64,000 nt of DNA from Sulfuriferula sp. GTDB lineage: Bacteria; Pseudomonadota; Gammaproteobacteria; Burkholderiales; Sulfuriferulaceae. Positions 27,477 through 51,155 of this stretch are shown here, one piece after another. A program made the translations under genes and the position numbers. The stretch covers positions 24,405-88,404 of the forward strand of contig JBAZJP010000005.1 in the NCBI GenBank assembly GCA_041651255.1. The letters run 5' to 3'. The notes under the pieces are model-generated. The model ran no database searches and was not told where the DNA came from. It saw only the letters and a list, made by a program, of their open reading frames with translations. Position 1 is the first letter of the stretch. The number at the start of each line of letters is the position of its first letter.

Positions 27477-28735
27477 TATAAATTAGGAATTTTTTGGGGG
27501 GCTACACCCACTGATGGGGATGGATAACATAATGCTTGTGTTAATGCCAAGCAAGATACTTGCCATGTGAGCTCGGTTGGTTGTTGTATGTATTTATTTT
27601 CGCTTTTGAATCGCTTTAGCCATTGAGGGAGGAGAGTGGTTAGGTCATGATCGGATGCCGAGTGGAAAAAACTAACGTTTTTACTGGCAATTTCACGGAA
27701 CACAGATAGGTCACGAGCCAGGACAGGCTTGCGGAAATAAGCGGCTTCTATCAATGGTAAGCCGTAACCTTCGCCTTTGGAGGTGATGAGCACGCCCAGG
27801 CATTGCCGGTAGAGGGCGCTCAGCAGATTATCCTCCACATCATTTAACCAAATCAACCGTTTGCCTGTTTCTGCATGGGTTCGCAGGCGGTGGCTGAGTT
27901 CTTCTATGTCCCATCCTTGCTTGCCAACGATGATTAGGCGGGTTGAATCGCCTGTTGCCCAGAGTGATTCGAACGCATCAAGTGCATCATCATAGCCTTT
28001 GCGTGGCTCGATGGTGCCGACCATAAGAATAAAGTCGTGCTCTGCTAAGTGTCGCGGTAATGGTGTAATGGACGCGTTGTTATCCAGCTCTGCACCTAAA
28101 GGAATTGTGGCGCAGGGTATTTCAGTTGTGGATAGCTGATAGTGCTTTTGCATCCAGTCGTGAAAATCGGCCTGTACAGTGCGTGAGATCGCAATGGTGT
28201 TATCGGCGAGTAGGGCAATGGCACGCAACCAGCGATGGAAATTCCGGCTGGCTCTGGGGGTGAACCATTCCGGATGCAATACGGGCAAAAGGTCATAGAT
28301 CACAATGCTGATACGTGTACCTTGCAGCTTCCAGTTCCATAGCTGTTCAAGGTGATGTGGAATCAGGTGCGCAGAAAGATCCAGCCCTAAAAAAATATCA
28401 CCTGCATTAACCTGAATCGGTAAGGTCGGGGCTGTCGCTGGTTGTTGTAAAAAATCAGTGGGCAGATAGCGGTAAGGCTGGGTACGCGAGGCCGCAACAG
28501 GACAGATGCGGTAACCCGCTGGCGGAGCTGCGAGTAATGCCTTGTACAGGTTGCGTACTACACGTTGGATACCGGTTTTTGCGTCGATTTTTGCAATGGC
28601 AGAAACGTCGATTAATAATTGTTTTTCTGCAGTGTCATGCGAGGTGTCGTGGGTTACGTGTGTTAGTCTTTTGCGCCAGAATGACACTGGTAAATACGTG
28701 AGTGCAATATGGTGGAGTAATCGTAGTGCGCGCAT
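27476..28735 (-). CDS. GT4 glycosyltransferase (WbpX/WbdA C-domain-like)
   Basis: LLIDVS..DAKTGIQRVV, YDLLP, VGTIEPRKG, EGYGLPLIEA. Confidence 0.88.
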   Translation of the reverse strand: MRALRLLHHIALTYLPVSFWRKRLTHVTHDTSHDTAEKQLLIDVSAIAKIDAKTGIQRVVRNLYKALLAAPPAGYRICPVAASRTQPYRYLPTDFLQQPATAPTLPIQVNAGDIFLGLDLSAHLIPHHLEQLWNWKLQGTRISIVIYDLLPVLHPEWFTPRASRNFHRWLRAIALLADNTIAISRTVQADFHDWMQKHYQLSTTEIPCATIPLGAELDNNASITPLPRHLAEHDFILMVGTIEPRKGYDDALDAFESLWATGDSTRLIIVGKQGWDIEELSHRLRTHAETGKRLIWLNDVEDNLLSALYRQCLGVLITSKGEGYGLPLIEAAYFRKPVLARDLSVFREIASKNVSFFHSASDHDLTTLLPQWLKRFKSENKYIQQPTELTWQVSCLALTQALCYPSPSVGVAPQKIPNL

Positions 28736-29397
28736 TATCCAATCTCAGCGGCGTGCTCGTTGTAATACACGAATGCTTCATCAAGATCATCAAACGCAGT
28801 CATTTTTCCTTTAACTAAGACTGCTGCGCGCTGGCAGTGTTGGCGGATGTAGTTTGGGTCGTGGGATACGATGATCATGGCACGATCGTTGCGTTTTTCG
28901 AATAGCTCAACACGGCATTTTTCGTGGAAACGATGATCGCCCACGGCAATGATTTCATCGATTAAAAAGCAATCAAATTCCACCACCATGGAGATAGCGA
29001 ACGCCAGTCGTGCTCGCATCCCTGATGAGTACGTTTTAACGGGTTCTCTAAGATATTTTCCTAGTTCAGAGAACTCTTGTACGAAAGGGATCTTGTCTTC
29101 GGTCGAGGTGTCGTAAATGCGGCAAATGAAGCGTAAATTATCCAGACCAGTCAGGCTGCCTTGAAATGCACCACCAAACGCCAACGGCCAGGATACACTC
29201 ATTCCTCGGGTGATACTGCCGCTAGTTGGGCGCTCAGCCCCGCTGATGAGGCGGATGAGCGTGGATTTGCCCGAGCCATTGCGCCCGAGTATACCAACTT
29301 TCTCACCTGGGGCTATTTGCAGGTTGATATTATCCAGTACAGTGCTGACACCGCTGCGAGTATGGTAGCGTTTGACGAGGTTGCTAATTTGTATCAT
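28735..29397 (-). CDS. wzt: Capsule ABC transporter ATPase KpsT/Wzt, short form without C-terminal carbohydrate-binding domain
   Basis: GRNGSGKST Walker A, YSSGM signature, FLIDE Walker B, VSH. Preferred start ATG 29397 (MIQISNLV), in ATGA overlap with the wzm stop; the ORF track starts at 29457. Confidence 0.93.
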
Positions 29398-30185
29398 TCG
29401 GGTATGACCGTTCTGGATATGATACGAACTTGCGAAAGCCCCAGCAAGGTAAGGCATAAATTGATAATCGCCATGTAACTCATGTCGTAATGCGCGTGGA
29501 CCATAGACCCGAAATAGCCTTCGCGCAGTATCTCGACACCATGCACCATAGGCAACAATAGGACGAATTTTTGCCCTGTGGTGGGTAGCCAGTCAACCAT
29601 GAATGCGGCACCAGATAGTGGAAATAAGAGATATGAGGCAGGGTGCCAGAGTTTCTCAATAATTTCGCTGCGCTCACTTAAAGCGCCTATCCACAATGCA
29701 AGTGCCGAGCCAAACCAGGCTAGCATGAACCAGCCAAACATGATTTTGAGTATATCTTCGGGTGGTTTAATCCAGCCTATCGAGGTGAAGACTATCCCTA
29801 ACATAATAAATGAAGCGGTAGTGCCAGCAATTTCAAGGATTAGTCGAGAAGCAAAAATGTCGATCACTTTGACATGACGGTGATACATCAAGGCCAGGTT
29901 AGGTTCAATGGCCTTGCTGCAGCGGTTAGGCATGTTGCGCCATAGTAAAACAGATGAGTAACCGGTGAGCGCAAATGCGGCAATAGGGATGTTGGTAAAG
30001 TGATGTCCGCCAGCCATAGTCCACAGCACGGTGACACCCAAGGTAAAGAGCATGGGTTCAACGAATAGCCATAAAAAACCAATATTATGACGACCATAGC
30101 GGGTGATGACTTCGCGCATCAATAGCGCGCCAATGACGCGGAATTGTATTTGTAAGGATCGGCGCAAGCTGGGTGTTGTATTCAT
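29394..30185 (-). CDS. wzm: Capsule ABC transporter permease KpsM/Wzm
   Basis: [26 protein letters not shown], multiple TM segments, P-x-VHG-x-E-x2-R. Confidence 0.93.
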
Positions 30186-30197
30186 CGATGGATCTCT

Positions 30198-31349
30198 TTA
30201 ATCCTGATGTTCGCGTATACCTGCGAATAACATGGTCAGCACACCCCAGACTATCATGCCAAGTATGAAAGTGGCGATGATGCTGCGTATGCGTCGTGGT
30301 TCCATTGCTTTATCTGGTTTGCTTGGTTGCACAATACGCTCCAGGTAAAACTGTTTGCGCTGAGCCTCGTTGCGTGCCTGTTCGAGCGACGCAAAAGCAG
30401 TAGCGAGTTGTTTATCTGCGAACATGCTTTCCAACTTGAGACGCTCATAGTCAGCAGCTTTGTTGGACAGGGAGTTGCCCGCGCCTGCGACTTTGGCAGT
30501 CTCGGTAGCAATGTCGGCTTCCAATGAGGCTACATGGCGTCTCAAAGCTGGTATTTGCGGGTTGTCGCGGGTGAGGCTTATTATCTGGCTGAGTTGATTT
30601 TTGGTGGAAATCAAATCGTCTTGCAGCTTGGAAATGAGTTGTAGTTGTAATGCGGATTGGCCAGTAGGGTCGAATATGCTTTTCTGATCACGGTAACGCG
30701 ATACGGCCAGAGCGGCGGCTTTGGCTTTTTGTTCGGCGGTAGCAACCTCTGCAGCAGCAAAGCGTATCATGTCCTGGCGACCACGTTCATTAAGTTGGTT
30801 GACAAGCTTTTCGCTCATTTCCAGCAGGCTTGCATTGATATGGTAAGCATCTTCGCTGGTAAACGCTTTAACGGTGAGCGTGGAGATGGATGACGCAGTA
30901 TCTGCATCGACGGTTACGTGTTTTTCATAATAACGCAACAGTGCTTCAAAGCTGGTGTCCCAGCCTAACCCACCGAAGCGGCTAAATATATCAATTTTGT
31001 TGCTGCTGTAAGCTTGACCGAGTTTGTATTGGTTCTCTAGCTGTTGCAGTGCGTCACGTGAAAGGATGAAGTCATGTACAGCAAAGCTGTCATCTTGTGC
31101 ACGTGAGAACCCCGCACCTTGCAGCAATGCACCCAAGCCCGAAGCGCTTTGTTTATCAGGGCTACGCACCACAAAACGTGATTCAGAGATATAAACGTCG
31201 GAAGCGATAAGGCCGAAATAGAGGATGGATAACAGCGTGGGAATGGCGACAGTAAACAGAAATAAGCGATTTATGCCCTTAATGCGCTGGATTAAATTGG
31301 GCTTGGTGTGCTGGATGTCGTTTGCTGCTGTGATTGTTGCGTTATCCAA
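30198..31349 (-). CDS. wcbD: Capsule export inner-membrane adaptor KpsE/WcbD/BexC
   Basis: N- and C-terminal TM helices, YISESRFVVRS, LSRDAL, EQARNEAQRKQFYL, P-x-KPD-x3-EP-x-R. TTG start with AGGAA RBS. Confidence 0.92.
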   Translation of the reverse strand: MDNATITAANDIQHTKPNLIQRIKGINRLFLFTVAIPTLLSILYFGLIASDVYISESRFVVRSPDKQSASGLGALLQGAGFSRAQDDSFAVHDFILSRDALQQLENQYKLGQAYSSNKIDIFSRFGGLGWDTSFEALLRYYEKHVTVDADTASSISTLTVKAFTSEDAYHINASLLEMSEKLVNQLNERGRQDMIRFAAAEVATAEQKAKAAALAVSRYRDQKSIFDPTGQSALQLQLISKLQDDLISTKNQLSQIISLTRDNPQIPALRRHVASLEADIATETAKVAGAGNSLSNKAADYERLKLESMFADKQLATAFASLEQARNEAQRKQFYLERIVQPSKPDKAMEPRRIRSIIATFILGMIVWGVLTMLFAGIREHQD

Positions 31350-31466: not shown

Positions 31467-33089
31467 TCAGTCTGGCTCAGAGGATGTCTGGGCTCCTGCA
31501 TTGTTGGGTTCGACAATAATATGGATAACTGTAGGTTTAAAGTCGTTACTCATGACGTCAAACCAGCCGATTGTTTCTTGAACTAGTGTTAAAGTCAGAG
31601 CGTAATGACCCGGCAAGGCGGGTGCGTTAATAAGCATCGATGTGGTGGCTGTCTGACCAGCGCGGATGCCGCCATGTGGCAGGGCAGAGCGTTCTCCTTC
31701 TAATATGGTATTGCCATTTTGAGCCCAGCGAAAAGCTATGTTGACTGGGCGGTAAACATCGCCTACCCAATGCTGTTTACCACAGTTCGCAATCACCACT
31801 TCTACAGTCATGGTCTGGTTGCATTGCATTGCTGGGATTGAATCGGTTGTAAAGATGCTGCCTTGAGGAGCTGCGATAATGCGGGCATCATCAGCATCAT
31901 GTGTGGGTAGCAAAGACAGTTCAGTTGGCAAATAAGCGTATCCGGCAAATTGTTGTTCAATAAGGCGGCGCACATGGAATTCACAGGCAACATCGCTCCA
32001 GGCCAATTCATTGATGCCTTCGGCTAAGCGCTCCGTGAAAGAAAACCCGGCGGTATATCGACCTGTTGGTAAATCCGCAATCAGGTAATAGCGTGCAGAG
32101 TATGAACCTGTTTCCACATTTTCATGGATTTGTTTAAGTAATATATTGTTTGTGCCGAATGCCCAGCGTTTCTCGTCATCGAAGATATGTATCCCCATCC
32201 CAAGTCCGGTTATATCTCGGCTCAGGAAGAAATCCACGGTAAATGTCATGACCTGGCCGTATTCAATAACAGCTCCATCTTGCAGTTCTGCCTTACTGAT
32301 GATCAGGTCAGGGGTGGTAAGCAGGCGGTTTCCACTCTGGCGTTCATATTTTTGCCATTGCGGCAAAGTCAGTTGTGGTGGGATAACGACCCGTTGCCAA
32401 GACGCCACTGTCTTATACAGTTGTAAATCAAGCTGATTGAGTTCGATGAGCCGCTTTTTCAATCCTTTTTTGATTTTTGACAGGCTTGGGCGTGCCGGTG
32501 TGACCCTGTGCCTGGCGACTTCGCTGGTTGGTGGGCTGCCAATTAGCTTGCCAAACTCATAGATGAAAGCAAGCATGTCTTCCTGCAACCCTATCAGGTC
32601 GTATTGGGCAAGTACTTTCAGGCAATGTGCTACGGAGAGCCGATTTTCCGTATTGTCTGTTGCCCCAATGCGAGAAAAGTGATTGACATAAAGGTTGGAA
32701 ATATTTGGTATCAGATCGTTATCCAGTTCCTGCCCATCGCTTTCCAGTAGTCGGGAAACTGACTGATATAACTTGGTATCCTGTTGGTTTTTGTATTCAT
32801 CCAGTACATAATAAAGCCAGGAAACGGCGCGATCTATAGGGTCACGCAGGCAGGTGACATAGGTGTAGCGAGGATCCAGCATATCACCCATATCGAAATC
32901 CATATGAGCACTGATGACGGAATATGTGCCACCGTATTGGGAAATAAGCTTGCGATGCAACCCATTGACTTGAGGCGAGACGCAGCCAGTTCCCAGCACG
33001 CTTGTCAGCCACGTAGCAGTTGCTGTACCCGCAGTTTTAGGCAGGTGGTCAAATAGTATTCGTCCTGGAAATGCCAGTGTTTTGTTCAT
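31467..33089 (-). CDS. Sulfotransferase-fold protein fused to a Wzt C-terminal-like domain and a second beta-sandwich
   Basis: DHLPKTAGT, TCLRDPIDRAVSW. Middle domain VIEYGQVMTFTVDF..GIHIFDD..AFGTNN..LPTGRY..EFHV. Last module FRW..GERSALP..PGHY..VQE..WFD. Confidence 0.75.
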   Translation of the reverse strand: MNKTLAFPGRILFDHLPKTAGTATATWLTSVLGTGCVSPQVNGLHRKLISQYGGTYSVISAHMDFDMGDMLDPRYTYVTCLRDPIDRAVSWLYYVLDEYKNQQDTKLYQSVSRLLESDGQELDNDLIPNISNLYVNHFSRIGATDNTENRLSVAHCLKVLAQYDLIGLQEDMLAFIYEFGKLIGSPPTSEVARHRVTPARPSLSKIKKGLKKRLIELNQLDLQLYKTVASWQRVVIPPQLTLPQWQKYERQSGNRLLTTPDLIISKAELQDGAVIEYGQVMTFTVDFFLSRDITGLGMGIHIFDDEKRWAFGTNNILLKQIHENVETGSYSARYYLIADLPTGRYTAGFSFTERLAEGINELAWSDVACEFHVRRLIEQQFAGYAYLPTELSLLPTHDADDARIIAAPQGSIFTTDSIPAMQCNQTMTVEVVIANCGKQHWVGDVYRPVNIAFRWAQNGNTILEGERSALPHGGIRAGQTATTSMLINAPALPGHYALTLTLVQETIGWFDVMSNDFKPTVIHIIVEPNNAGAQTSSEPD

Positions 33090-33134: not shown

Positions 33135-34430
33135 TTAACTAATCAGCCCGAGTGGTGCAGTAATGGCTTCCATGACAGCTGGATCGCCACGCGCTCCCCA
33201 GCGTTTTAGTGTGCTGGAGAATACGCTGGCAGCAGTACCTACGACATTCGATCGATCTATTCTATGCTTCATGTTCATAATGCGTGTTGCATAATCATCA
33301 GCCCGGAACGTTTTTAGTGCATAGTTGCGAGCTAAATTGCCAATTGTGTGCCGTTCATCCGGTAATGCGGTCAGTCTTTCCAGTGCGGTTCGCAAATCGG
33401 TCAGTTCTGTTTCTGGGGATACTTTTAATACACAATCATCAGGCAGGTCGAGGTAGAAACCCGTGTTCGTAACTACGGTAGGTTTACTATACAGCATGGC
33501 TTCAATGGTCGATGCAGATGCCGCTTCCAGAGCTGGCCAGCGCAAGCAGCACATGAGATCGGCGCGGTGAATTTCTTCAGCCAGGCATTCATCGTTCACT
33601 GCACCGGTGATTGTTATGTCGACTTGCAGCTGGTCGGCAAGTGATTGCAGTTCTTCTGCCATGGCGGGTTCGATGGCGCCAACTATGCGATAAGTTAAAT
33701 CCGAGCATAGCTCAGGACTCGATCCGATCGCTTTTATTACACTTGTATAACGCTTGTTGTGGTTAACATGTCCAATCGTTAGTGCTACGGTTCGTTCATG
33801 ACTCACTGACTGATTCTTCATGTCGGTGTGTTCAGCAAAGGGTGCGTCGTAGGGGAGCGCAACAACCTCAACCGGTCCGGGACAGGCATGAGCGATTCGA
33901 TCCATTGCCCAGCTTGAATGCACAATCACAGCGCTGGACATCGCCGCTATCCATTCAGTCATCGGCGCAGCCGTGCTGGCATATTCGATAAATGATGAAG
34001 AATCCGAATGATTAAAAAAACGCTCGGACACTTCAGTGCCGTATAGCGCTGCAAGCACTTCTAATGCATGCGGTCGTCCGACGGTTTCAGACCAGGCCCA
34101 AAATAAATGGCCTAGAAAATTATCATGCAACGAAACTAATCCGGGGAGTTGGGGCAGCCATTCCAAGCAGCCACGATGATAAGCGTAGTAGTTACCTATC
34201 TGATACACAATCAGATCAGATTGCTCTGCTTGCAGGCGAACCTGTTCGGTGTTATTCCAGTGCTCTATCTGGCATGAGAACGGATGGGTCGGGCTGTCGA
34301 AGCACGAGGGTTCTTCTGCGCGTACGATGACAACTTCGTGTCCTCGCTGCTGCAACTCGTAAACGATGAGTTTGGATACCCTGCCGATTGCAGAAGTGAG
34401 TACTATTGGGGTAAAAAACAGTATTTTCAT
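33135..34430 (-). CDS. GT4-like glycosyltransferase
   Basis: SAIGR, YQIGN-x3-H, IGHVNHNKR, LRWPALEAASASTIEAM. Confidence 0.75.
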   Translation of the reverse strand: MKILFFTPIVLTSAIGRVSKLIVYELQQRGHEVVIVRAEEPSCFDSPTHPFSCQIEHWNNTEQVRLQAEQSDLIVYQIGNYYAYHRGCLEWLPQLPGLVSLHDNFLGHLFWAWSETVGRPHALEVLAALYGTEVSERFFNHSDSSSFIEYASTAAPMTEWIAAMSSAVIVHSSWAMDRIAHACPGPVEVVALPYDAPFAEHTDMKNQSVSHERTVALTIGHVNHNKRYTSVIKAIGSSPELCSDLTYRIVGAIEPAMAEELQSLADQLQVDITITGAVNDECLAEEIHRADLMCCLRWPALEAASASTIEAMLYSKPTVVTNTGFYLDLPDDCVLKVSPETELTDLRTALERLTALPDERHTIGNLARNYALKTFRADDYATRIMNMKHRIDRSNVVGTAASVFSSTLKRWGARGDPAVMEAITAPLGLIS

Positions 34431-35464
34431 GTGAGCAATCTTTCAATGGTGGCGGGCCATGAGATTTCCATATCGTTCCATAATTTGTACGCGGCACGTC
34501 CCATGGCTCGCACCTCGGCAGTATCACGACAAGCCTGATTTAATGCGGTTGCCAATGAATCCGGGTTAGGTTCGGCAACCCAGCCGGTTTCTCCGTGTTT
34601 CACTAATCCCAGGACCCCGCCGCTATCAGATGAGGAAATAATCGGCTTGCTGGCTGTGGCTGCTTCCATTGCGACATAGCCGAGTGAGTCCTCGTCAAAT
34701 GGCAAATAAGCACAGGCATTAGCTTCATTGGCATAGCGTGCCAGTTCTTCTCTGCTCAGAAATCTAAGATCGAGTTTAACTTTATCCTGCAAGCCATGCT
34801 GCTCAACCAGGCGCTGGAGCCGTAAAGCATCCTCTGGTTTTTCTGGCGGGCCGGCCACAATCAGGCGCACATGTGAGGCGGTTTGTGCCATCGCTTCAAT
34901 CAGCAGGTGCTGACGTTTCATACCGTTGACGCGCCCGCCAGCAAATACATAGCCTTGCGATGTTCCGCCGGTGAATAGCTCGGGATCATTCAAAGGCGGT
35001 AGTAGTACTTCGGCCTCAAAGCCATTGTATTTGGCCAGTCGCGATTTTGTGACGTCGGAATTGGTAAAGATACGACGTGTTTCGCCAAAGGCTTCATTAT
35101 CCGCATTGCGAATAATGGTTCGCACTTCATCACCGGCGGCACCGGCTGGAATGTTGGACTGTCCCGCATCGAACAGATCGTAGGCCTGACGATACTGGTG
35201 TAGTAACCATAGGGTTTTGTGCGGGTGGCGAATCAAATAGGCGGGAAATTTCAGGGCAATGACGCGATCCACGTTGCGTACTTCCATTGCTCGAGCCATC
35301 AGCATCTGGGCAGGAATGCCCTTCGCTGGCTCCCATTGAAAGGGGATGCGTAGTATTTCGGCTTCATGGCCAGCAATGATGAGATTTTTTTCTAGATGCA
35401 CCGCTAATTCTTCGGCGCCGCCCCAGATAAAAGGTGCCATGTTGTTAACAATGAGTATCTTCAT
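34427..35464 (-). CDS. GT4 glycosyltransferase
   Basis: GGAE, GRVNGMKRQHL, EDSLGYVAMEA. Paralog of 35461..36498. Confidence 0.85.
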   Translation of the reverse strand: MKILIVNNMAPFIWGGAEELAVHLEKNLIIAGHEAEILRIPFQWEPAKGIPAQMLMARAMEVRNVDRVIALKFPAYLIRHPHKTLWLLHQYRQAYDLFDAGQSNIPAGAAGDEVRTIIRNADNEAFGETRRIFTNSDVTKSRLAKYNGFEAEVLLPPLNDPELFTGGTSQGYVFAGGRVNGMKRQHLLIEAMAQTASHVRLIVAGPPEKPEDALRLQRLVEQHGLQDKVKLDLRFLSREELARYANEANACAYLPFDEDSLGYVAMEAATASKPIISSSDSGGVLGLVKHGETGWVAEPNPDSLATALNQACRDTAEVRAMGRAAYKLWNDMEISWPATIERLLT

Positions 35465-36498
35465 GCAAGTAACTGTTCTAATACATGCGGCCAGGAAATG
35501 TTCAATTCGATGATGCGTTGCGCAGCATTGAGCCCCATCTGCTGGGTATTGGCGCGATTGAGAAAAAGTTGATCCATCGCCTCAGCCAGTGCTTCAGGTT
35601 TGGGAGCGGCAATTAATCCGTTATAGCCATGTTTTACCAATTCGGTCACACCACCCGCGTCGGTAGTGGTAAGGATAGGCTTGGATGAATGACTGGCTTC
35701 CAGGGATGGGTATCCATAGGAATCTTCGTCGAGCGGCAGATAGGCCGCAGCCAGGCATTCTGACAGAATTTGTATTTTTTCCTCCTCGGGTATCCATTTG
35801 CTCTCGAAGTGAACACGATCTTCGAGTTTGGATGCCGCAATCAACTCCTGGAGTTCTTGAGTATAGGCGTCGCTATCACTTTTACCGCAAATACGCAGCT
35901 TAACGTTTGTGCGAGTATGGCGCAGCGCTTCAATCAATAAATGCTGGCGTTTATGATGGACGATTCTGCATATGTAAACGATTTCATCATTAAAGTGCTG
36001 GTTGTGGAAACGTTCCGGTTGAATGACAGGCGGATACAGTACCTTACTGCCGACATTGTTAAAACGTTGTAATCTGTCTGAAACTACGTGTGAATTGGTG
36101 AAAACTTGTTTCGCTTCGCCTAAAGCGGCCGTGTCGGCACGATGCAGTACATCACGAAGATTTTGATGTTTTTCATCATCGTTGAAGCATCTGTATGGAG
36201 TATCCCACAGATCGTAAAAGACTCGAATATGATGAATGAACCACAGTATTTTATGTGGATGAGGAATGACGTGAGCCGGGGGGCGAAAGCATATTATCCT
36301 GTCTGCAGATGCAGTTAGGTCGACCCATCGATAGGCCGCCATTTGCGATAACAGTAAATCGGGCTCGTCAGAATGCGGTAAATAGATGCGCTCTACCTGG
36401 TGCCCGGCTTTGAGTAGTTCGATTTGTAGCCAGTCTACGATATTGCGGTATCCTCCATTAATGAAGGGTACAGCTGAAGAACAAAGGGCGATCTTCAT
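35461..36498 (-). CDS. GT4 glycosyltransferase
   Basis: CRIVHHKRQHL, EDSYGYPSLEA. Paralog of 34427..35464 with the same length (345 aa). Confidence 0.85.
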   Translation of the reverse strand: MKIALCSSAVPFINGGYRNIVDWLQIELLKAGHQVERIYLPHSDEPDLLLSQMAAYRWVDLTASADRIICFRPPAHVIPHPHKILWFIHHIRVFYDLWDTPYRCFNDDEKHQNLRDVLHRADTAALGEAKQVFTNSHVVSDRLQRFNNVGSKVLYPPVIQPERFHNQHFNDEIVYICRIVHHKRQHLLIEALRHTRTNVKLRICGKSDSDAYTQELQELIAASKLEDRVHFESKWIPEEEKIQILSECLAAAYLPLDEDSYGYPSLEASHSSKPILTTTDAGGVTELVKHGYNGLIAAPKPEALAEAMDQLFLNRANTQQMGLNAAQRIIELNISWPHVLEQLLA

Positions 36499-37610
36499 GG
36501 CAGGGAAGTTGCCTTATCGAGGGCGTGCGCAATGTGTAAAACATCGTCTCGCGTTAGCATTTGATGTGTGGGAAGATTAATGCCACGCTGCGCCCATAAG
36601 TCGGCTATTGGGAAAGTGCTTGGTTGTGCGTAAGGGGGCAGGATATGCATGGGATAGAACACCGGCCTGGTCTCAATGCCAACTTCATCGAGCTCTCGCA
36701 TCACTGCATCACGTCGTACTTCGTCACCCTCGCGCAGAAAAATATTGTACATCCAGTAAGTTTGCTTGGCCCATTGGGCCTGAGTGGGTAACTGAATACG
36801 GTCAGCCAGTGGAGCCAAAGCTTCGTCGTACCAACCGGCCAGGCGTTCGCGATCAGAAAGCGCCTGGTCAATATTTTCCAGCTGAGCCAGACCAATGGCG
36901 GCCTGAATGTTGGTCATGCGGTAATTGTAGCCAACGACAGGAAACCAGTAACGGCGATCCGGATCCATGCCCTGCCCACGATACAAACGTAGTTTGGCGG
37001 CCAGTTCGTCGTCATTGGTTGTGACCATGCCGCCTTCACCCGTGGTGATAATCTTGTTACCAAAGAAGCTGAAAATGGCGCATTGTCCGAGCGTACCTAC
37101 TTTCTGTCCAAGGTATTCGGCACCATGCGCCTCTGCTGCATCCTCCAGTACGAATAATCCGTGAGATCTGGCGAATTCAAGAATAGGTTTCATTTCAGCC
37201 GGATGTCCATAGAGGTGGACCGGGATGATTCCTTTGGTTTTGGGCGTAAGGTGTCTTGCCATATCCACCGGGTCGATATTCATGGTGCCCGGACATACAT
37301 CGACCAATACGGGTGTGGCACCGCAGTAACGCACTGCATTGGCGGTGGCAATGTACGTTACGGTCGGGATGAGAACCTCATCGCCTGGCTGCAGCCCCAT
37401 AGCCACCAGTGCCAAGTGCAATGCGGTAGTGCCATTGTTTGTGGCGATGGCGTGTTTGACACCACAAAACTGGGCGAAAGATTCCTCGAAAGCGGTGATG
37501 TATTTGCCTTTAGAGGAGATCCAGGTGCTGTCGATACAGTCCAGGACGTACTCTCGTTCCTTGCCTGATAGTTTGGGTTCTGCTACTGAAATTCGTGGTG
37601 TACTCATCAT
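36495..37610 (-). CDS. per: GDP-perosamine synthase (Per/RfbE-like aminotransferase)
   Basis: P-x-LSGKEREYVLDCIDSTWISSKG, EDAAEAHG, FSFFGNKIITTGEGG, GYNYRMTN-x-QAAIG. gmd present in the window. Confidence 0.82.
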   Translation of the reverse strand: MMSTPRISVAEPKLSGKEREYVLDCIDSTWISSKGKYITAFEESFAQFCGVKHAIATNNGTTALHLALVAMGLQPGDEVLIPTVTYIATANAVRYCGATPVLVDVCPGTMNIDPVDMARHLTPKTKGIIPVHLYGHPAEMKPILEFARSHGLFVLEDAAEAHGAEYLGQKVGTLGQCAIFSFFGNKIITTGEGGMVTTNDDELAAKLRLYRGQGMDPDRRYWFPVVGYNYRMTNIQAAIGLAQLENIDQALSDRERLAGWYDEALAPLADRIQLPTQAQWAKQTYWMYNIFLREGDEVRRDAVMRELDEVGIETRPVFYPMHILPPYAQPSTFPIADLWAQRGINLPTHQMLTRDDVLHIAHALDKATSLP

Positions 37611-38239
37611 TGCTCTTTACGGAAAATTCTGGCCGGATGGCCGAGTGCTGTAGTTGAAGAAGGGATGTCGGAAATCACGACCCCGCCGGCGCCTATCATT
37701 GTGTTGTCACCAATCGTTATATCCGGAATCACAGTGGTGCTGATACCGAGAAATGCTCTCTGACCCACGGTTACATTGCCGGCAAGTGCGCACTGCGGTG
37801 CTATGTGAGCACAGAACCCAATGCGGCAATCGTGGTCGACAGTAGCACCTGTGTTGATGATCGCCAGGTCTTCGATATGGCTTTCAGCGTTGATTATTGC
37901 GCCACTCATGATTGCTATGCCTTTGCCTAGCACGACGGACGGGGAAATGATTGCAAATGGGCTGATGGCATTGACAAGTTCGAATCCGAGGGTTACAGCG
38001 TGGGCAGTTGCGCGCTCGCGGATGCGGTTTGACCCGATGGCAGGAAAGAGCAGGCTATTTCCGGCTTCACGCAGCTTAATTAGCTGTTCATCTCCCTGTA
38101 GAACGGGTACGTCCAGACATGTAGCAGGGCTGTCTTCGCCACCGACACAGTAGTTAACCTGATAACCCGCTGCGCGTAGTATCTCAATGACGACTTTGGC
38201 ATGACCGCCCCCACCTAAAACGACCACGGAATTTTTCAT
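37607..38239 (-). CDS. Sugar N-acetyltransferase, PerB/PglD/NeuD family (left-handed beta-helix)
   Basis: LGGGGHAKV, AIG-x-N-x2-R, hexapeptide repeats, VDHDC, G-x-PAR. Preferred start ATG 38239 with AGGAGG RBS and ATGA overlap. Confidence 0.88.
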   Translation of the reverse strand: MKNSVVVLGGGGHAKVVIEILRAAGYQVNYCVGGEDSPATCLDVPVLQGDEQLIKLREAGNSLLFPAIGSNRIRERATAHAVTLGFELVNAISPFAIISPSVVLGKGIAIMSGAIINAESHIEDLAIINTGATVDHDCRIGFCAHIAPQCALAGNVTVGQRAFLGISTTVIPDITIGDNTMIGAGGVVISDIPSSTTALGHPARIFRKEQ

Positions 38240-41103
38240 TGCGAACCTCCTGCTTTTGTCCAAACTGGCGATTGCCGCCGCGCAAAAAACAGATTTATTG
38301 ATTCGATGGCGTCCAGCTCATCAATGGAAATGTTGCGTAATGCGCCGCTATCAGGGTGAATTGCTTGGTATTCAAGACCGAGTTGGCTAAATCGCTCCAG
38401 CCAGTCTTGCGATGTGATATTGGTCCGTTTCAAGTGGGAGTTGCCAAATTCTGCAATGATAGCGATGTCTTTATTCTGCTTTATCAGTGATTCAGCCCCA
38501 GCCAATACTTCAAGCTCGGCACCTTCTGCATCAATTTTAATGAGGTGCGCAAATGGCGCGTTTGCCATGATTTGATCTATTGTTGTGGTGCGCACGGTAA
38601 CTGGTTCGATGTCTATTCTGGATGCTTCGTCGAGCGGGAAGAGAGAATGGTGGCCGCTGGTTGCACCTAGATACAAGGTGCGTTCACGCTGTTCGTCAGA
38701 TGCGGCAATGCAGTGTATTTCAACCATATTTTTAAAACCATTCATCCAGATGGTTTTTTCCAGTAGGCGTGCTGTCGGAGGGTAAGGTTCGAATGCAATC
38801 ACACGTCCTTGTCCACGCATGCTCTTCGCAGCCGCAAGGGTGTGCATCCCAACATTTGCACCCACATCAATAAAGATGTCGCCTGGGCTGAGAATATGCT
38901 GAATCAAATGTCGTGTGCCTGGTTCCAGTTCGCCGCTTTCGATGAGTGCTGCAATCAGGGCATGATCTTCACTAGCGCATAAAACATAGCCGACACTGGT
39001 TCTTACCATGAGGGCATCCGTTCCGAAAGGAACGGCTACACGGCGAGCAGCAGTCAGCCCATAAAGCTCAATGCGACCAAGCTGAGGATTCAGTTGATCT
39101 AATTGTAGGTGCAGCTGTTCCTGAGCAGTTATGGACTCAGCCAGTTGAGCCAGGATGGTGGTGTTATCTTCTTTCAGTGTTTGCGGTAGCGAAACATTCA
39201 AGTATTCAGCGACTTGCTGTACACGGTAGGTCATGTCAGCCTGGATGTTGGATAGTGTCGCTAACATCTCGCTTGTATGCTTATGCACGTCGTTGGATAC
39301 GGTTGAGCTTTCTTTGCTGATTAAGGCTGCAGTGTTAACTGCATGTTGGCCTAGTTGCAGGCGCAACTGTTCCTGAGCAGTTATGGACTCAGCCAGTTGA
39401 GCCAGGATGGTGGTGTTATCTTCCTTCAGTGTTTGCGGAAGCGAAACATTCAAGTATTCAGCGACCTGTTGTACACGGTTGGTCATGTCAGCCTGGATGT
39501 TGGATAGTGTCGCTAACATCTCGTTTGTAAGCTTATGCACGTCGTTGGATACGGTAGAACTTTCTTTACTGATTAAAGCTGCAGTGTTAACTGCATGTTG
39601 ACTTAGTTGTAGGCGTAGCTGTTCCTGAGCTTGATCTCCCAATATAAGCCGTGCCAGGATTGTCGTTTTGATCTCGTCAATGGATTGTGGTAAAGATGTA
39701 TTTAGTTGCTCAGCAGCTTCCTGTGCCTGGCGGGTTAGGTCTGCTTGCGTCTTAATTAGCGCAGTTTGTACGCTATGAGAAAAGTTGTTTATTTCGTGCA
39801 ACAAGGTTGTATGCTCTTGGCCAATCAAGGATGCTGTCTCATAGGCGAGCTTGTCTAGTTGTTGATGAAGCCGCTTTTGTGCTGTTTCAGCTTTCAAGAG
39901 AGACGCTAATATTGTTGCTTTGATATCCTCAGCTGTTTGTGGCAACGATGCACTTAATTGCGAAGTCGCTTCTTGCACCAGGCGGGCAAGGTTCATTTGA
40001 GTTTTAGTTAGCGCTGTTTGCGCATCGTTTGCAACTTTGCTAATTCTGTAAGATAAGGCTGCGTGCTCTTGATCAATCAAAGTCGTTGTTTCTTTGCTGA
40101 GCTTGTCGACTTGTTGCGCCAGAGTCAATGTTGCGGTTTGCCCATCTTTGAGTTCTGCTCTGATTGTCGCGACATCGGATTGTTGTTGTGAATTAATTCG
40201 TTGTATTGATAGCTCTATGCCTTGCAAGCGTTGACGGCTATCTGCGACTGCTGAGGGTAGTGTAAGTGTATCGATTGCCCATTTGATAAAGGGCATATTT
40301 CTTAGTTTGTGTAGCCAGGATGCCGCTGTTAACCCCGCCACTCGATTCGAGATAACTCTATCCCTGTTGGATGTTTTGATCTCGGAGAGGATGGAGAGTT
40401 TGCTGCGGCCATTTCTTAGTTGTGTCAAATAATGTTCGAAGTTCTGTTGGTCTGGCAAGCGACCGAGAACCGATTGAAATGCATGATTAATAAACTGGAC
40501 ATCATCATAAACAAGTAATTCGTTTAGATGGACGCGTGAAATTGCGCAGATTAATTCAATTAACCACCCAAGAACAGGCACGCGTCGATATTTTAGTAGC
40601 AGGTATGTCCAGCGCAGTTTTTTATACCACTTTTTGGCAATTTCAGTTTCTCCAGAGGCCGCTAGCTGTCCCAGAATTTGGATGCGAGAGATGCCGTCAT
40701 TTAATCGTTGATTAAAATAATGCAATCCAGTCGGGTCTGGTGTTCTATCTAGTATTTCTAAGTAAGCAGCGTTGATAAATTTTTCACCGTCTAATGACAA
40801 TAGGCGCGGTAGTCTGATGTGTATTTGCGAAGTGGGGTCAAACAATGGGCTGGTTGATGTCTGCTCGTGACTCAAGTCATGAGTTGTAATTTTTTCGGGT
40901 TGTGATTGGGGTTCGCAAGGGGAGGCGTTTTCTTTAACTTGAGGATTGTGCGGGCAACTAAGTGCGTTGATGGCTGGGCTGCGCATCTGATGATTGAGAA
41001 TATCTCCCATGCTTGGATCATGTATCGTCATCTTTTTTGGTCGGGATGTGCGATTGTGAATGCTGTCGTTATTCATTTTGTCAAGGGTTGAGGGATGTTT
41101 CAC
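38236..41103 (-). CDS. FkbM-family methyltransferase with two N-terminal DUF4214-like modules and a 4x84-aa helical repeat stalk
   Basis: C-terminal IDVGANVG, AFEP, IKIDAEGAELEVL-x-G. Two F-x3-(Y/F)-x3-L-x-R-x-PD modules. Start codon uncertain. Confidence 0.85.
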   Translation of the reverse strand: MKHPSTLDKMNNDSIHNRTSRPKKMTIHDPSMGDILNHQMRSPAINALSCPHNPQVKENASPCEPQSQPEKITTHDLSHEQTSTSPLFDPTSQIHIRLPRLLSLDGEKFINAAYLEILDRTPDPTGLHYFNQRLNDGISRIQILGQLAASGETEIAKKWYKKLRWTYLLLKYRRVPVLGWLIELICAISRVHLNELLVYDDVQFINHAFQSVLGRLPDQQNFEHYLTQLRNGRSKLSILSEIKTSNRDRVISNRVAGLTAASWLHKLRNMPFIKWAIDTLTLPSAVADSRQRLQGIELSIQRINSQQQSDVATIRAELKDGQTATLTLAQQVDKLSKETTTLIDQEHAALSYRISKVANDAQTALTKTQMNLARLVQEATSQLSASLPQTAEDIKATILASLLKAETAQKRLHQQLDKLAYETASLIGQEHTTLLHEINNFSHSVQTALIKTQADLTRQAQEAAEQLNTSLPQSIDEIKTTILARLILGDQAQEQLRLQLSQHAVNTAALISKESSTVSNDVHKLTNEMLATLSNIQADMTNRVQQVAEYLNVSLPQTLKEDNTTILAQLAESITAQEQLRLQLGQHAVNTAALISKESSTVSNDVHKHTSEMLATLSNIQADMTYRVQQVAEYLNVSLPQTLKEDNTTILAQLAESITAQEQLHLQLDQLNPQLGRIELYGLTAARRVAVPFGTDALMVRTSVGYVLCASEDHALIAALIESGELEPGTRHLIQHILSPGDIFIDVGANVGMHTLAAAKSMRGQGRVIAFEPYPPTARLLEKTIWMNGFKNMVEIHCIAASDEQRERTLYLGATSGHHSLFPLDEASRIDIEPVTVRTTTIDQIMANAPFAHLIKIDAEGAELEVLAGAESLIKQNKDIAIIAEFGNSHLKRTNITSQDWLERFSQLGLEYQAIHPDSGALRNISIDELDAIESINLFFARRQSPVWTKAGGSQ
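39121..40128. repeat. Intragenic tandem repeat, 4 x 252 bp (84 aa)
   Basis: ctgagcagttatggactcagccag occurs at 39121 and 39373 (252 bp apart). Two near-identical units are preceded in the protein by two diverged units of exactly 84 aa, each containing SLPQ and ending AQ. Confidence 0.92.
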
Positions 41104-41526: not shown

Positions 41527-41871
41527 TTAAGCTTGGGTGCTAACACTATCAGTGGTGAGGCTTTGGCTTGCTAGTTGAGAAAGCGTTTGCAAGTAATCAG
41601 CAGCTGTTGCATAGGTGTTGCCTTGTAGGCTTTGCGATAGTTGCATTATATCCGCTCCAGCCTGCTGAGATTGAGCGATGCTCTGTACGGATGCTTTAGC
41701 TTGTTGGCGATTTTGGACAGCATCTGTACTAGTTACGTTAGATAACGTTTGTGCGAAAGATGCGCCACCAGATTGAGTAGTGCTTTGAGTTGATGTTTTA
41801 CGATCTTGCATTAAGCATGCAGCGCCAGTTTTGTAGGCACCAGTCCCTATATATCCAGGATTAACAGGCAT
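41527..41871 (-). CDS. Small Q/S/T/A-rich hypothetical protein
   Basis: AAGGAG RBS 6 nt before the ATG; own terminator downstream. Confidence 0.7.
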   Translation of the reverse strand: MPVNPGYIGTGAYKTGAACLMQDRKTSTQSTTQSGGASFAQTLSNVTSTDAVQNRQQAKASVQSIAQSQQAGADIMQLSQSLQGNTYATAADYLQTLSQLASQSLTTDSVSTQA

Positions 41872-48191: not shown

Positions 48192-51155
48192 ATGAAAAAT
48201 GAGAGTGGTTCAATGAATCAAATAACGATCCCAACACTGGAGAATGCCGCTGGTTTGCTGTCAGTTGCAGAGCTGCTGTCATATCATGATGAGTTTTTTA
48301 TACGTTTGGCATTTTTGGTTTTGCTGGGACGAGCGGCTGATCCTGATGGTTTGAACCATTATTTAGGCCGCTTGCGTAATGGTATCGATAAAGCACAGAT
48401 ACTGGCAGAGATTAAATTTTCACCAGAGGGGGAGGGCTATGCGACAGCGCTTGCTGGACTGGATGCAGTGCTTAAGCCGTATGCTTGGTTGAAATCACCT
48501 ATTTTAAATAAGCTGACCCGCATACAAAAGCGGTTGGGTGGCAACGATGCGATTTTGTGCCACTTACGTGCCTTGGATAATCAACTGTTGCGACAGCAAG
48601 ATGATTTTGGTTATGAGTTACGGCAAGTGGATGAGCGCTTGGCCCAGCAATTGGCAGCACAACAGGCAGCCTCAACGAATTTGGAGGGACAGCTTTCCAG
48701 TCGGTTGGATGCTTTAGCGCAGCAGTTGAGTGAGCAGCAGGTGGCGCTGGCCCAGCAATTGGCAGCACAACAGGCAGCCTCAACGAATTTGGAGGGACAG
48801 CTTTCCAGTCGGTTGGATGCTTTAGCGCAGCAGTTGAGTGAGCAGCAGGTGGCGCTGGCCCAGCAATTGGCAGTACAACAGAGTGCCTCGACGAATTTGG
48901 AGGGGCAGCTTTCCAGTCGGCTGGATGCTTTAGCGCAGCAGTTGAGTGAGCAGCAGGTGGCGCTGGCCCAGCAATTGGCAGCACAACAGGCTGCCTCGAC
49001 GAATTTGGAGGGGCAGCTTTCCAGTCGGTTGGATGCTTTAGCGCAGCAGTTGAGTGAGCCGCAAATGGCGCTGGTGCAGCAAATGACAGTGCAACAGGCT
49101 GCCACAGCGAATTTTGAGGGTTGGGTTTCCAGTCGGCTGGAAGTTTTGATGCAGCGCATGGGCGAGCAGCAGTCAACTTTGGGGCAATTACACTCGTTGA
49201 ATGAGGTCAAGCTGGATGAACTTAAGGAATATAGGGTTGCAGTTCGCCCATGGGTTGGTGAATTGCCCGCTTTGGCTGTGGCACCCAAAGTGTCAGTTGT
49301 CATCGTGCAGTACCAGCACTCGGTTGTGACTAGCCGCTGTATTCGTTCCTTATTCCGTTACACCGATATGTATGATGTTGAAATTGTGGTGGTAGATAAT
49401 GGCAGTTCACCAGAACATGTTGAGGCATTGGTGCAAGAATTTGGTTCGTCTATCAGGATGCTGCAATTGGGAGTCAATCGCTATTTCGGCGAAGGTAACA
49501 ATATAGGGGTTGAAGCGACGCGTGGCGAATTTGTCGTGTTGATCAATAATGACGTGGCAGTTACGCAGGGCTGGTTGAGTGCGTTGTTGCCTCATTTGCA
49601 TGGCAATATTGGCGTTGTGGCGCCGACGTTCCTCTACCCGGATGGTCGCGTGCAGGAATGCGGCGCGACGATAAATGAGCAGGGACGATCTATTCAGAAA
49701 CTGCAGTTTGGTAATCAAAGTGAGTTACCGCTGCTTCCATTTGAGTGTGATTATGTTTCTGCTGCCCTGATAGTTATGCGTAAACGGGATTATCTCGCTG
49801 TGGGCGGTTTTTCACCGGAATATGAACCAGCATATTACGAAGACGTGGATTTGTGTTTCAAGCTGGCTGCGCGGGGGTTGCGTACGGTCTGCGTACCTAA
49901 AGTACGTGTGTATCATGTGGGAAATGCAACTTCAAGTGGCTTTGAATTTGGAATGGAACTTCCGATGCTGATCGATTCTGCCAAGAATGTTCTGCTGTCG
50001 CGCTGGCAGCCGTTTTTGAGTAGTAGAAATGTAGATGGTTTGCGATCAGGGGCACGTGACAGCATGCATTTGCCCGATAGTGCGGCGACTATAACGATGG
50101 CGTCTCCTGCTGCCTTATTCTATTTGCCGGCCGTTGAGTTTGATGCTAACACCCGATACGCTTTAAACATTGCCCGTGCGATGGCGACGACGCATCAGCT
50201 GGTTTTCGCTTGCCCTGCAGCCACTAGTCGTTTGCGTTTATTGCAGATTGCGCGTCACTGGGGGCTGGGACTAGCGAATTTGCAATGCGTGGTCTGGGGT
50301 GATGCTGTCACTGATCAGGTATGGGATAAATGTTTTGTGTTCGGTAATACGGTGTTTCCACCTATCGCTGCACCTGTTGCGCATAGCATATATGCGTGTG
50401 CATTCCCGGTTGATGCTCACCATCCTGATATAACTAATCAGTCGTTAATGGATGGATATCAATATTGGTGCCAAAGTGTATGGGTCAAAAATAATCTTTG
50501 TGATGCGGGTTGGGTAGCGCCTGAACGGGTGACTGTCTTGCCAGAAGCAGTAAGTCAATTTGCGGCTCAAGCAAACAAGGAGCATGTCATTGTATCAGTG
50601 GCGAAATTCACGCTTAATGGCCAGCAGCTTCTGATAATTGAGGCGTTCAAACGTTTGGTTGCTTCAGGTGGTTTTGACGGCTGGCGCTTGATATTGGTTG
50701 GCACGCGTTCTCCACAACCTGATGATCTGGCTTACTTGAGCCACTGTATGGCACAAGCGGAAGGCTGGGCTATTGAGTTTGTGTTCGATGATGCAATAGA
50801 TATATTGCGTGATGTTTATGCGCGTGCAGCAGTGTATTGGCACGGGGCAGGGTTGGGTGTGGATGTGGTCAGCACTCCGGCGCTGGCTGATAATGCCGGG
50901 GTGGAAGCCTTAGAGGCAGCCAGCGCTGGTTGCCATGTTTTTATACCTAATGCTGGATCGGTGTTTGAATGGTTGCGCGGTGCACCAACTGGTGTGTATG
51001 CGTGTGCTAGTGTTGATGAGCTGGTAAATCTTATGCTCGATGTTAATCAGGATTTGGGTTGGGAGGTCGCTGCGGAACATGATGCAGCGTGGTTGCAAGA
51101 TCGGTCTTTGCAAAAATTTACCGAGTCAGTTCAGAATAAGCTTCAGTTGCTGTGA
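48192..51155 (+). CDS. DUF4214-like module + 36-aa repeat stalk + GT2 + GT4-like glycosyltransferase
   Basis: LLGRAADPDGLNHYLGRL; repeats; GT2 VVDNGS, GNN-x-G, NND, YYEDVDLC; C-terminal GT4-like domain with GVEALEAASAG. Confidence 0.85.
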   Translation: MKNESGSMNQITIPTLENAAGLLSVAELLSYHDEFFIRLAFLVLLGRAADPDGLNHYLGRLRNGIDKAQILAEIKFSPEGEGYATALAGLDAVLKPYAWLKSPILNKLTRIQKRLGGNDAILCHLRALDNQLLRQQDDFGYELRQVDERLAQQLAAQQAASTNLEGQLSSRLDALAQQLSEQQVALAQQLAAQQAASTNLEGQLSSRLDALAQQLSEQQVALAQQLAVQQSASTNLEGQLSSRLDALAQQLSEQQVALAQQLAAQQAASTNLEGQLSSRLDALAQQLSEPQMALVQQMTVQQAATANFEGWVSSRLEVLMQRMGEQQSTLGQLHSLNEVKLDELKEYRVAVRPWVGELPALAVAPKVSVVIVQYQHSVVTSRCIRSLFRYTDMYDVEIVVVDNGSSPEHVEALVQEFGSSIRMLQLGVNRYFGEGNNIGVEATRGEFVVLINNDVAVTQGWLSALLPHLHGNIGVVAPTFLYPDGRVQECGATINEQGRSIQKLQFGNQSELPLLPFECDYVSAALIVMRKRDYLAVGGFSPEYEPAYYEDVDLCFKLAARGLRTVCVPKVRVYHVGNATSSGFEFGMELPMLIDSAKNVLLSRWQPFLSSRNVDGLRSGARDSMHLPDSAATITMASPAALFYLPAVEFDANTRYALNIARAMATTHQLVFACPAATSRLRLLQIARHWGLGLANLQCVVWGDAVTDQVWDKCFVFGNTVFPPIAAPVAHSIYACAFPVDAHHPDITNQSLMDGYQYWCQSVWVKNNLCDAGWVAPERVTVLPEAVSQFAAQANKEHVIVSVAKFTLNGQQLLIIEAFKRLVASGGFDGWRLILVGTRSPQPDDLAYLSHCMAQAEGWAIEFVFDDAIDILRDVYARAAVYWHGAGLGVDVVSTPALADNAGVEALEAASAGCHVFIPNAGSVFEWLRGAPTGVYACASVDELVNLMLDVNQDLGWEVAAEHDAAWLQDRSLQKFTESVQNKLQLL
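48639..49178. repeat. Intragenic tandem repeat, 4 near-identical + 1 diverged 108-bp (36-aa) units
   Basis: Unit LAQQLAAQQAASTNLEGQLSSRLDALAQQLSEQQVA; ggcccagcaattggcag at 48641 and 48749. Units are contiguous, with no spacers. Confidence 0.95.

Follow-up and report, generated by a model that had tools for sequence, protein, structure and literature searches.

WbdD, the chain-terminating kinase/methyltransferase of Escherichia coli O9a/O8 and Klebsiella O3/O5, is a trimer of ~20 nm in which insertions into, and truncations of, the spacer shift the modal chain length (PMC5082667), and for which structures exist (PMC3482155). The coiled-coil ruler logic has been described as characteristic of the terminators of ATP-binding cassette (ABC) transporter-dependent glycan assembly (PMC11231755). 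WbbB of Klebsiella pneumoniae O12, ORF6 of O7, and ORF7 of O4 likewise combine a terminator with a coiled coil to set chain length and are modular and widely reshuffled (Kelly et al., J Biol Chem 2024, PMC11231755). In all four of these proteins, the terminator lies N-terminal to the coiled coil (PMC11231755; PMC5082667). For ABC-dependent capsules, no chain-length factor is known, according to a 2025 review (PMC12220298). The present analysis concerns a gene in a stretch of 64,000 nucleotides (nt) from Sulfuriferula sp. (GenBank assembly GCA_041651255.1, contig JBAZJP010000005.1, positions 24,405 to 88,404 of the forward strand), referred to below as the window. The encoded protein consists of an N-terminal pair of DUF4214 modules, a spacer built from four tandem units of 84 amino acids (aa), and, at the extreme C-terminus, a methyltransferase of the FkbM/RfbT type. 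Taken together, the evidence is read here, with slightly less than an even chance of being right, as describing a chain-capping O-methyltransferase on a tunable helical spacer that would gauge capsule chain length.

The window protein resembles WbdD in joining a terminator-type methyltransferase to a long spacer (here predicted to be helical) and a putative membrane- or polymerase-proximal module, within a locus for ABC transporter-dependent glycan assembly. In both cases, spacer length is variable, by engineering in WbdD and naturally in the family of the window protein. There are also differences. The window enzyme is of the FkbM/RfbT type and has no kinase; its spacer, if extended, would be ~2.5 to 3 times longer than that of WbdD and consists of exact tandem repeats with a period of 3.65 residues and one proline per unit; and the accompanying exporter, KpsMT/KpsE, has no cap-binding Wzt domain. 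Moreover, the candidate anchor is N-terminal and the enzyme C-terminal. An earlier, sequence-only reading of this DNA had noted that WbdD-type rulers carry their catalytic domains at the N-terminus, and the published descriptions agree, making the window protein their mirror image (PMC11231755, PMC5082667). No WbdD chain was matched in a phmmer search of all PDB chains at E <= 1. Compared with WbbB, O7 ORF6, and O4 ORF7, two of which hold polymerase glycosyltransferase modules in the same polypeptide, the window locus encodes its three family 4 glycosyltransferases (GT4s) apart from one another, with DUF4214 as the base module. By analogy, the protein would be WbdD-like in logic and mirror-image in topology, acting as a ruler in a capsule pathway.

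Another point of comparison is RfbT/WbeT, the Ogawa methyltransferase of Vibrio cholerae O1, whose family threshold (PF05575) the window enzyme passes. The substrate of RfbT is a homopolymer of perosamine, the product of an ABC-dependent pathway, which it methylates on the terminal sugar. The enzymes encoded by the window cassette are those that synthesis of an N-acylated perosamine would call for. RfbT is a stand-alone protein of ~286 aa, with neither a stalk nor DUF4214, and it is not known to set chain length. The locus as a whole resembles the Kps-type (group 2/3, wcb-like) capsule loci, with KpsE, KpsM, KpsT, a KpsD-like outer membrane polysaccharide export (OPX) protein, and KpsC/KpsS-like proteins; a stalked, terminator-type methyltransferase sets it apart from the described Kps machinery. 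No study of the stalked methyltransferase family came up in searches of the literature on FkbM in connection with terminal capping, coiled coils, or chain length. A Burkholderia paper lists a "methyltransferase FkbM" in a similar cluster, as an annotation only (PMC3584063).

Domain order and the four repeat units

The gene and its parts are located as follows (window coordinates; residues of the open reading frame [ORF]; structural confidence as predicted local distance difference test [pLDDT] from AlphaFold2 [AF2]).

38236..41103 (-): stalked methyltransferase ORF, whole; 955 aa from a GTG, from the ORF list
40645..40791 (-): DUF4214 module 1, residues 105-153; best stretch of the Pfam PF13946 match; AF2 pLDDT ~80-85
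40519..40644 (-): basic, aromatic amphipathic helix EIAKKWYKKLRWTYLLLK followed by hydrophobic helix VPVLGWLIELICAISRVHL; candidate monotopic membrane or complex anchor
40369..40506 (-): DUF4214 module 2, residues ~200-245; second PF13946 stretch
39037..40293 (-): predicted helical stalk (AF2), residues 271-689, 419 aa
39877..40128 (-): repeat unit 1 (U1), residues 326-409
39625..39876 (-): repeat unit 2 (U2), residues 410-493
39373..39624 (-): repeat unit 3 (U3), residues 494-577
39121..39372 (-): repeat unit 4 (U4), residues 578-661
39091..39120 (-): truncated start of a fifth unit, EQLHLQLDQL, residues 662-671; merges into the conserved LNPQLGRIELYG junction with the methyltransferase module
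38239..39096 (-): conserved C-terminal methyltransferase module, 286 aa, from Pfam and NCBIfam matches; AF2 pLDDT ~90
38377..38868 (-): FkbM core within the methyltransferase module, residues 746-909

The favored start is M25 (window position 41031), giving a protein of 931 aa: the database gene call, P0001, begins there, and the homologs P0005 and P0002 begin at the equivalent position. The order of the domains was borne out by profile searches against Pfam and NCBIfam, in which the repeats separate the N-terminal DUF4214 modules from the C-terminal methyltransferase, as had been proposed. DUF4214 (PF13946) scores 66.1 bits over two stretches, above the gathering score; in most family members the N-terminal module is internally repeated at a lag of 95, and phmmer returns two N-module matches per protein. 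The methyltransferase matches FkbM with 74.9 bits for PF05050 (cut-off, 22.7) and 101.7 bits for TIGR01444 (cut-off, 37.7), and RfbT (PF05575) with 41.6 bits over residues 724-921 (gathering score, 27.9). Class I methyltransferases dependent on S-adenosylmethionine (SAM) were the only matches of its AF2 model in Foldseek. The methyltransferase module forms the last 286 residues, at the extreme C-terminus, in 174 of the 174 relatives examined.

The N-terminal region also contains a candidate for attachment. Helix EIAKKWYKKLRWTYLLLK has a hydrophobic moment of 0.43 and a net charge of +5, helix VPVLGWLIELICAISRVHL averages 1.62 on the Kyte-Doolittle scale over 19 residues, and the segment is kept in the family consensus; from these features, the two helices may constitute a monotopic anchor or docking site. 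A transmembrane anchor was considered and rejected because the positive charges lie N-terminal to the hydrophobic segment, an orientation that would leave the SAM-dependent enzyme in the periplasm; this charge placement makes a monotopic anchor more likely than a transmembrane one. The N-terminus has no signal peptide, and the enzyme, being SAM-dependent, must be cytoplasmic.

The four units are exact in length. Residues 326-661 (window 39121..40128) align as four units of 84 aa, ungapped and with no indel, and each carries one SLPQ motif (residues 386, 470, 554, and 638, spaced by exactly 84), just as the sequence-only reading had described them. U1 and U2 are 50% identical in protein and 62% in DNA, U3 and U4 are 95% and 93.7% identical, respectively, and identity between the older and the younger pair is 31-39% at the aa level. 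All six pairings score 7.7-22.9 standard deviations above shuffled units, with the observed score reached in none of 5,000 shuffles. Tandem Repeats Finder reports the young pair only (39093..39630, period 252, 2.1 copies). The description of the young pair as "nearly identical" holds for the protein but not for the DNA, where 16 of the 252 positions distinguish U3 from U4, giving a synonymous divergence (dS) of 0.236, a nonsynonymous divergence (dN) of 0.021, and a dN/dS ratio of 0.09, values that do not fit a recent event. The duplication that produced U3 and U4 is old at the DNA level, and the two copies have been under strong purifying selection since. They nevertheless retain exact runs of 51 and 43 nt, a substrate for recombination.

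Helical periodicity and predicted structure of the stalk

The hydrophobicity of the 336 repeat residues shows a single sharp peak at a period of 3.66 (84/23 is ~3.65), with a power of 24.7; none of 300 shuffles exceeded 8.3. The power at 3.5 is 0.9, which rules out a heptad (canonical left-handed) coiled coil; the "12 heptads" formerly counted in each unit are arithmetic only. The conserved apolar columns of the unit (25, 29, 32, 36, 40, 43, 47, 51, 54, 58, 62, 66, 69, 73, and 77) follow a 4-3-4 hendecad rhythm, and from this pattern one unit is best read as seven hendecads plus one heptad, amounting to 23 turns. The apolar seam forms a single continuous stripe, with L, I, V, M, and F making up 57% of residues within ±50 degrees of its axis and 15% outside. 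Its phase is equal in all four units and shifts by only ~30-75 degrees across the proline.

This periodicity is a property of the family. Of 19 family spacers, 17 have a period of 3.62-3.66, and the 39-aa repeat found in the Burkholderia lata group has a period of 3.54, equal to 11 turns. Orthologous units differ by indels of 7, 15, and 22 aa, corresponding to 2, 4, and 6 turns, so that the register of the seam is kept. Preservation of the register through repeated remodeling speaks for functional long helices rather than a loose linker. An alpha-solenoid of short helix-turn-helix repeats was rejected as a description of the region, each 62-aa segment ahead of a proline being one coherent seam with almost no Gly or Pro.

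Structure prediction gave a helical picture of low confidence. In a full-length AF2 run on a 14-sequence alignment, DSSP assigned helix to residues 247-535 and 543-665 (P0001 numbering) with one short break, at a pLDDT of 40-58, and the helix passes through three of the four SLPQ prolines. The stalk modeled alone yielded three helices (pLDDT, 58; predicted template modeling score, 0.22), interrupted at residues 194-204 and 290-294 of the modeled piece, adjoining the SLPQ motifs of U2 and U3. Over both runs, the stalk is all helix at a pLDDT of ~40-65, and neither showed any sign of a compact globular domain in the repeat region. The structural check suggested for the stalk thus came out divided: the spacer is predicted to be all-helical and nonglobular, but with its period of 3.65 it is not the heptad coiled coil that had been envisaged. 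A phmmer search of all PDB chains returned nothing significant; the best match, to apolipoprotein A-IV, had an E value of 0.0098, and the Pfam Apolipoprotein family (PF01442) reached 12.5 bits against a threshold of 90, missing its gathering score.

The breaks in the stalk-only model are also what might be seen if the spacer folded back on itself. In such a bundle, the SLPQ motifs would be turns, the ~84-aa helices running from proline to proline would pack antiparallel over ~12 nm, and extra units would add helices instead of length. An SxLPx motif that is conserved once in every unit throughout the family, and that recurs every 39 aa in the B. lata group, fits this arrangement, as do the weak compositional matches to the helical bundles of apolipoprotein A-IV in the PDB and Pfam searches. 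Conversely, the full-length model continues through three of the four prolines, and the shift in seam phase at the proline is like the drift within helices. Copy numbers of 1, 3, 4, and 5, or of 7 versus 8, together with units of unequal length within one protein (84, 69, 62, 77, and 77 aa), suit a linear array better than a closed bundle, in which, in addition, a change between odd and even numbers of units would flip the end at which the enzyme sits. A fold-back bundle is accordingly regarded as improbable.

The same weak matches bear on a different possibility. Exchangeable apolipoproteins are typified by an 11/3-type periodicity punctuated by prolines, and helices of that type could rest along the cytoplasmic face of the membrane, or along a lipid-linked intermediate, instead of projecting outward. 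The net charge of the repeat region is -12, Lys and Arg together making up no more than 25 of its 336 residues, which would be unfavorable on an anionic bacterial membrane; the single-stripe seam reads as coiled-coil-like; and the Pfam score is far below threshold. An apolipoprotein-like role is, on these grounds, very improbable.

Spacer length among relatives

The family was surveyed through relatives of the window protein (38 at 90% clustering) and through the 513 clusters of a 50% library that share the C-terminal module at E <= 1e-30. Twenty-eight retrieved proteins share the three-part design, with spacers that run from 121, 138, 158, and 212 aa to 501, 506, and 540 aa. Most of these spacers are themselves tandem repeats, with periods of 84, 77, 73, 62, 40, or 39 aa. 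A profile of the 84-aa unit found one copy in P0006, three in P0004 and P0007, 3.5 in P0016, four in the window protein and P0003, and five, of the unequal lengths given above, in P0002. In a tree of the units, copies cluster by protein and not by position, which indicates that duplication or homogenization has recurred in each lineage. The suggested survey of repeat number among relatives thus showed one to five units, spacers of 121-540 aa, and one-unit differences between near-identical alleles.

Two sets of such alleles were found. In the first, P0003 and P0004 (L014 8001-10940 and L015 8001-10688, respectively, from ENA assemblies) have four and three units, a difference of exactly 252 nt, and the 8-kb flanks are 100% identical on both sides (16 kb). 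The three-unit version in P0004 is a mosaic of U2/U3 and U3/U4 chimeras, not the product of a single crossover, and the difference could be either a real polymorphism or an assembly artifact. In the second, the B. lata-group orthologs (L096; P0176-P0184) carry seven or eight copies of a 39-aa unit, each copy with an LPK proline; this shorter unit is equivalent to the 84-aa one in its C-terminal half. P0009 is separated from P0010 by 24 substitutions plus one 39-aa unit. P0180 (1,270 aa) has all eight units and P0181 (1,231 aa) has one fewer, each being two substitutions from P0009. In several NCBI records, contig ends cut the B. lata-group gene into "partial" proteins, which is what a repeat that breaks short-read assemblies would produce.

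Within the genus of the window, 27 genomes contained stand-alone FkbM domains or DUF4214 fragments only, and a full-length ortholog was not found among them. A scan of the contigs of named genomes with patterns for the methyltransferase core recovered generic FkbM enzymes only and was uninformative about the repeats.

A second and larger architectural class is formed by the majority of the relatives that share the C-terminal module (P0020-P0034 and most of P0043-P0175), which are without DUF4214. They have an N-terminal extension of 100-300 aa, in many cases rich in proline and made of repeats whose periods are 17-53 aa.

Capsule locus and proposed mechanism

The methyltransferase gene heads a cassette with overlapping stops and starts, and the exporter genes lie in the same orientation.

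33135..38263 (-): downstream cassette, co-transcribed; N-acetyltransferase, aminotransferase, and three GT4s, from Pfam and NCBIfam
28735..31349 (-): KpsE-like, KpsM-like, and short KpsT-like exporter genes; TIGR01010, 392 bits (KpsE family); NF050053 (KpsM)

The cassette encodes, in order, the methyltransferase, an N-acetyltransferase of the NeuD/PglB/VioB type, a DegT-family aminotransferase, and GT4s of 345, 345, and 431 aa. Elsewhere in the window are an OPX/KpsD-like gene, gmd, an rmd-like gene, and KpsC/KpsS-like genes. The polymer is most likely rich in N-acetylperosamine and assembled by a capsule pathway of the Kps type. Adjacent to KpsM, the exporter ATPase (28735..29457, -) is 240 aa long and consists of the ABC_tran domain only, with no Wzt_C or other carbohydrate-binding domain; its counterparts in related loci have 215-218 aa. 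Judged by its genes, the locus is a Kps-type capsule locus and not a Wzm/Wzt O-antigen locus with a cap-reading Wzt.

A 540-aa protein encoded between the exporter genes and the cassette (31467..33089, -) combines a sulfotransferase with a Wzt_C carbohydrate-binding domain, separate from the exporter ATPase. No partner of this sulfotransferase/Wzt_C type was seen within 8-10 kb in the related loci.

The cassette recurs in seven loci: metagenome loci L014 and L015, three more from metagenomes, and those of B. lata (L096) and Ralstonia insidiosa (L097). The recurring order is KpsE-like, KpsM, short KpsT, (GT4), methyltransferase, acetyltransferase, aminotransferase, GT4-345, GT4-345, GT4-431/441, and gmd. 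KpsE, KpsM, and KpsT sit side by side in the window, as they do in six related loci; the B. lata locus has KpsC, KpsD, and the cassette, with no KpsE, KpsM, or KpsT within 10 kb. The Ralstonia listing includes two 345-aa GT4s only, with a spacer of 427 aa, and contig L098, which contributes a 445-aa spacer, ends ahead of its GT4s. A large polyketide synthase, KpsC/KpsS-like transferases for 3-deoxy-D-manno-octulosonic acid (Kdo), and a KpsD-like OPX protein appear in the Burkholderia and Ralstonia loci.

The loci that all carry GT4s of 345, 345, and 431-441 aa have spacers of 212, 289/373, 291, 373, and 501/540 aa. The family offers a natural experiment, in which a shared cassette (with the GT4s given above, except in Ralstonia and L098) is combined with stalks of 212-540 residues and with near-identical alleles one unit apart. 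Because the cassette is shared and the stalks differ, the ruler hypothesis is directly testable by comparing polymer sizes.

Under the proposed mechanism, a cytoplasmic, SAM-dependent O-methyltransferase of the FkbM/RfbT type would act on the polysaccharide made by its own cassette. The DUF4214 pair and the basic amphipathic helices would tether the protein to the membrane or to the glycosyltransferase complex. The four 84-aa units would build a long helical stalk, non-heptad and probably an oligomer, whose continuous seam makes 23 turns per unit and which keeps the methyltransferase distant from the site of polymerization. Chains growing on their lipid anchor through the action of the GT4s would come within reach of the methyltransferase only after attaining sufficient length, and methylation of the nonreducing terminal sugar would then stop extension. 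If straight, the stalk could reach up to ~50 nm (336 residues x 0.15 nm), and the whole predicted helix ~62 nm. Recombination between units would alter this length by whole units or by quanta of 2, 4, or 6 turns. Of the inverted-topology ruler originally proposed, the mirror-image domain order, the helical spacer, and its variable length have been retained; the heptad coil and the young age of the U3/U4 duplication have not, and the pathway is of the Kps capsule type.

A number of observations weigh against this mechanism. The period of the stalk is not that of a heptad coil, and a rigid coiled coil would not usually contain a conserved proline in each unit (every 39 aa in the B. lata group); the low pLDDT of the stalk and the breaks at two of the four SLPQ motifs leave room for fold-back. 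The one-unit differences between alleles come from short-read assemblies and may be collapse artifacts, and P0004 is a mosaic; furthermore, neutral drift of an unconstrained tether would generate length variation too. The dN/dS of 0.09 between U3 and U4 indicates sequence-specific constraint exceeding the needs of a passive spacer. An exporter ATPase without a cap-reading domain implies that capping is not needed for export, and methylation could be internal decoration. Finally, a ruler function is argued from sequence, gene context, and models.

Several of these points would be expected of a tether or scaffold that does not measure, in which the repeats oligomerize and dock the enzyme, the methyltransferase carries out internal decoration or length-independent capping, and repeat number turns over neutrally. 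The short KpsT would then have no need of a cap-reading module; spacer lengths between 121 and 540 aa are indeed broad and continuous, with no preferred values; the strong constraint on the units would reflect specific protein-protein contacts along the stalk; and other enzymes of the window locus likewise contain DUF4214 followed by helical repeats. Set against this, the published coiled-coil terminators of ABC-dependent glycan assembly are rulers wherever they have been tested (PMC11231755), the catalytic module sits at the end farthest from the putative anchor, and indel quanta that preserve the seam indicate selection for an intact long helix over any linker. A nonmeasuring tether is considered rather unlikely.

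If the preferred interpretation, that of a methyltransferase measuring with its stalk, is correct, the family would provide a concrete candidate for how ABC transporter-dependent capsules set chain length, and the coiled-coil ruler principle would gain three extensions: a mirror-image topology, a stalk built of repeats with a non-heptad period, and the widespread, uncharacterized DUF4214 module. In its most far-reaching form, this proposal would make the protein the first chain-length determinant of Kps-type capsules, a methyl-capping enzyme on a non-heptad, proline-punctuated rod that is tuned between and within species by the gain and loss of units, with DUF4214 as a general docking module for such rulers and for other stalked capsule enzymes; this stronger version is put forward as speculative and is, on present evidence, rather doubtful.

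Some further genes in and around the locus were recorded. At the edge of the window locus lies a 2,528-aa ORF (495..8081, -), close in size to a 2,542-aa polyketide synthase with ketosynthase (KS), acyltransferase (AT), dehydratase (DH), and enoylreductase (ER) domains at the edge of the R. insidiosa locus (L097 1-1537); the two were compared by size only, and their similar length suggests that the cassette is accompanied in both loci by one wcb-like module for a lipid primer. The 1.1-kb AT-rich gap (G+C, ~41%) upstream of the methyltransferase gene contains a candidate gene, a 114-aa ORF rich in Q, S, T, and A (41527..41871, -) with a weak, subthreshold Pfam match.

DUF4214 occurs in other proteins of the window as well. 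A 987-aa enzyme with family 2 and family 4 glycosyltransferase (GT2-GT4) domains (48192..51155, +) begins with DUF4214, which is followed by approximately five nearly identical 36-aa repeats rich in Q, L, and A (~48639..49178); these form a second repeat-built stalk in the locus, with no peak at 3.5 in its hydrophobic spectrum. A 219-aa protein (26817..27476, -), encoded directly upstream of a 1,106-aa GT2/GT4, has one DUF4214 and a helical tail with no enzyme domain, and it may be an adaptor.

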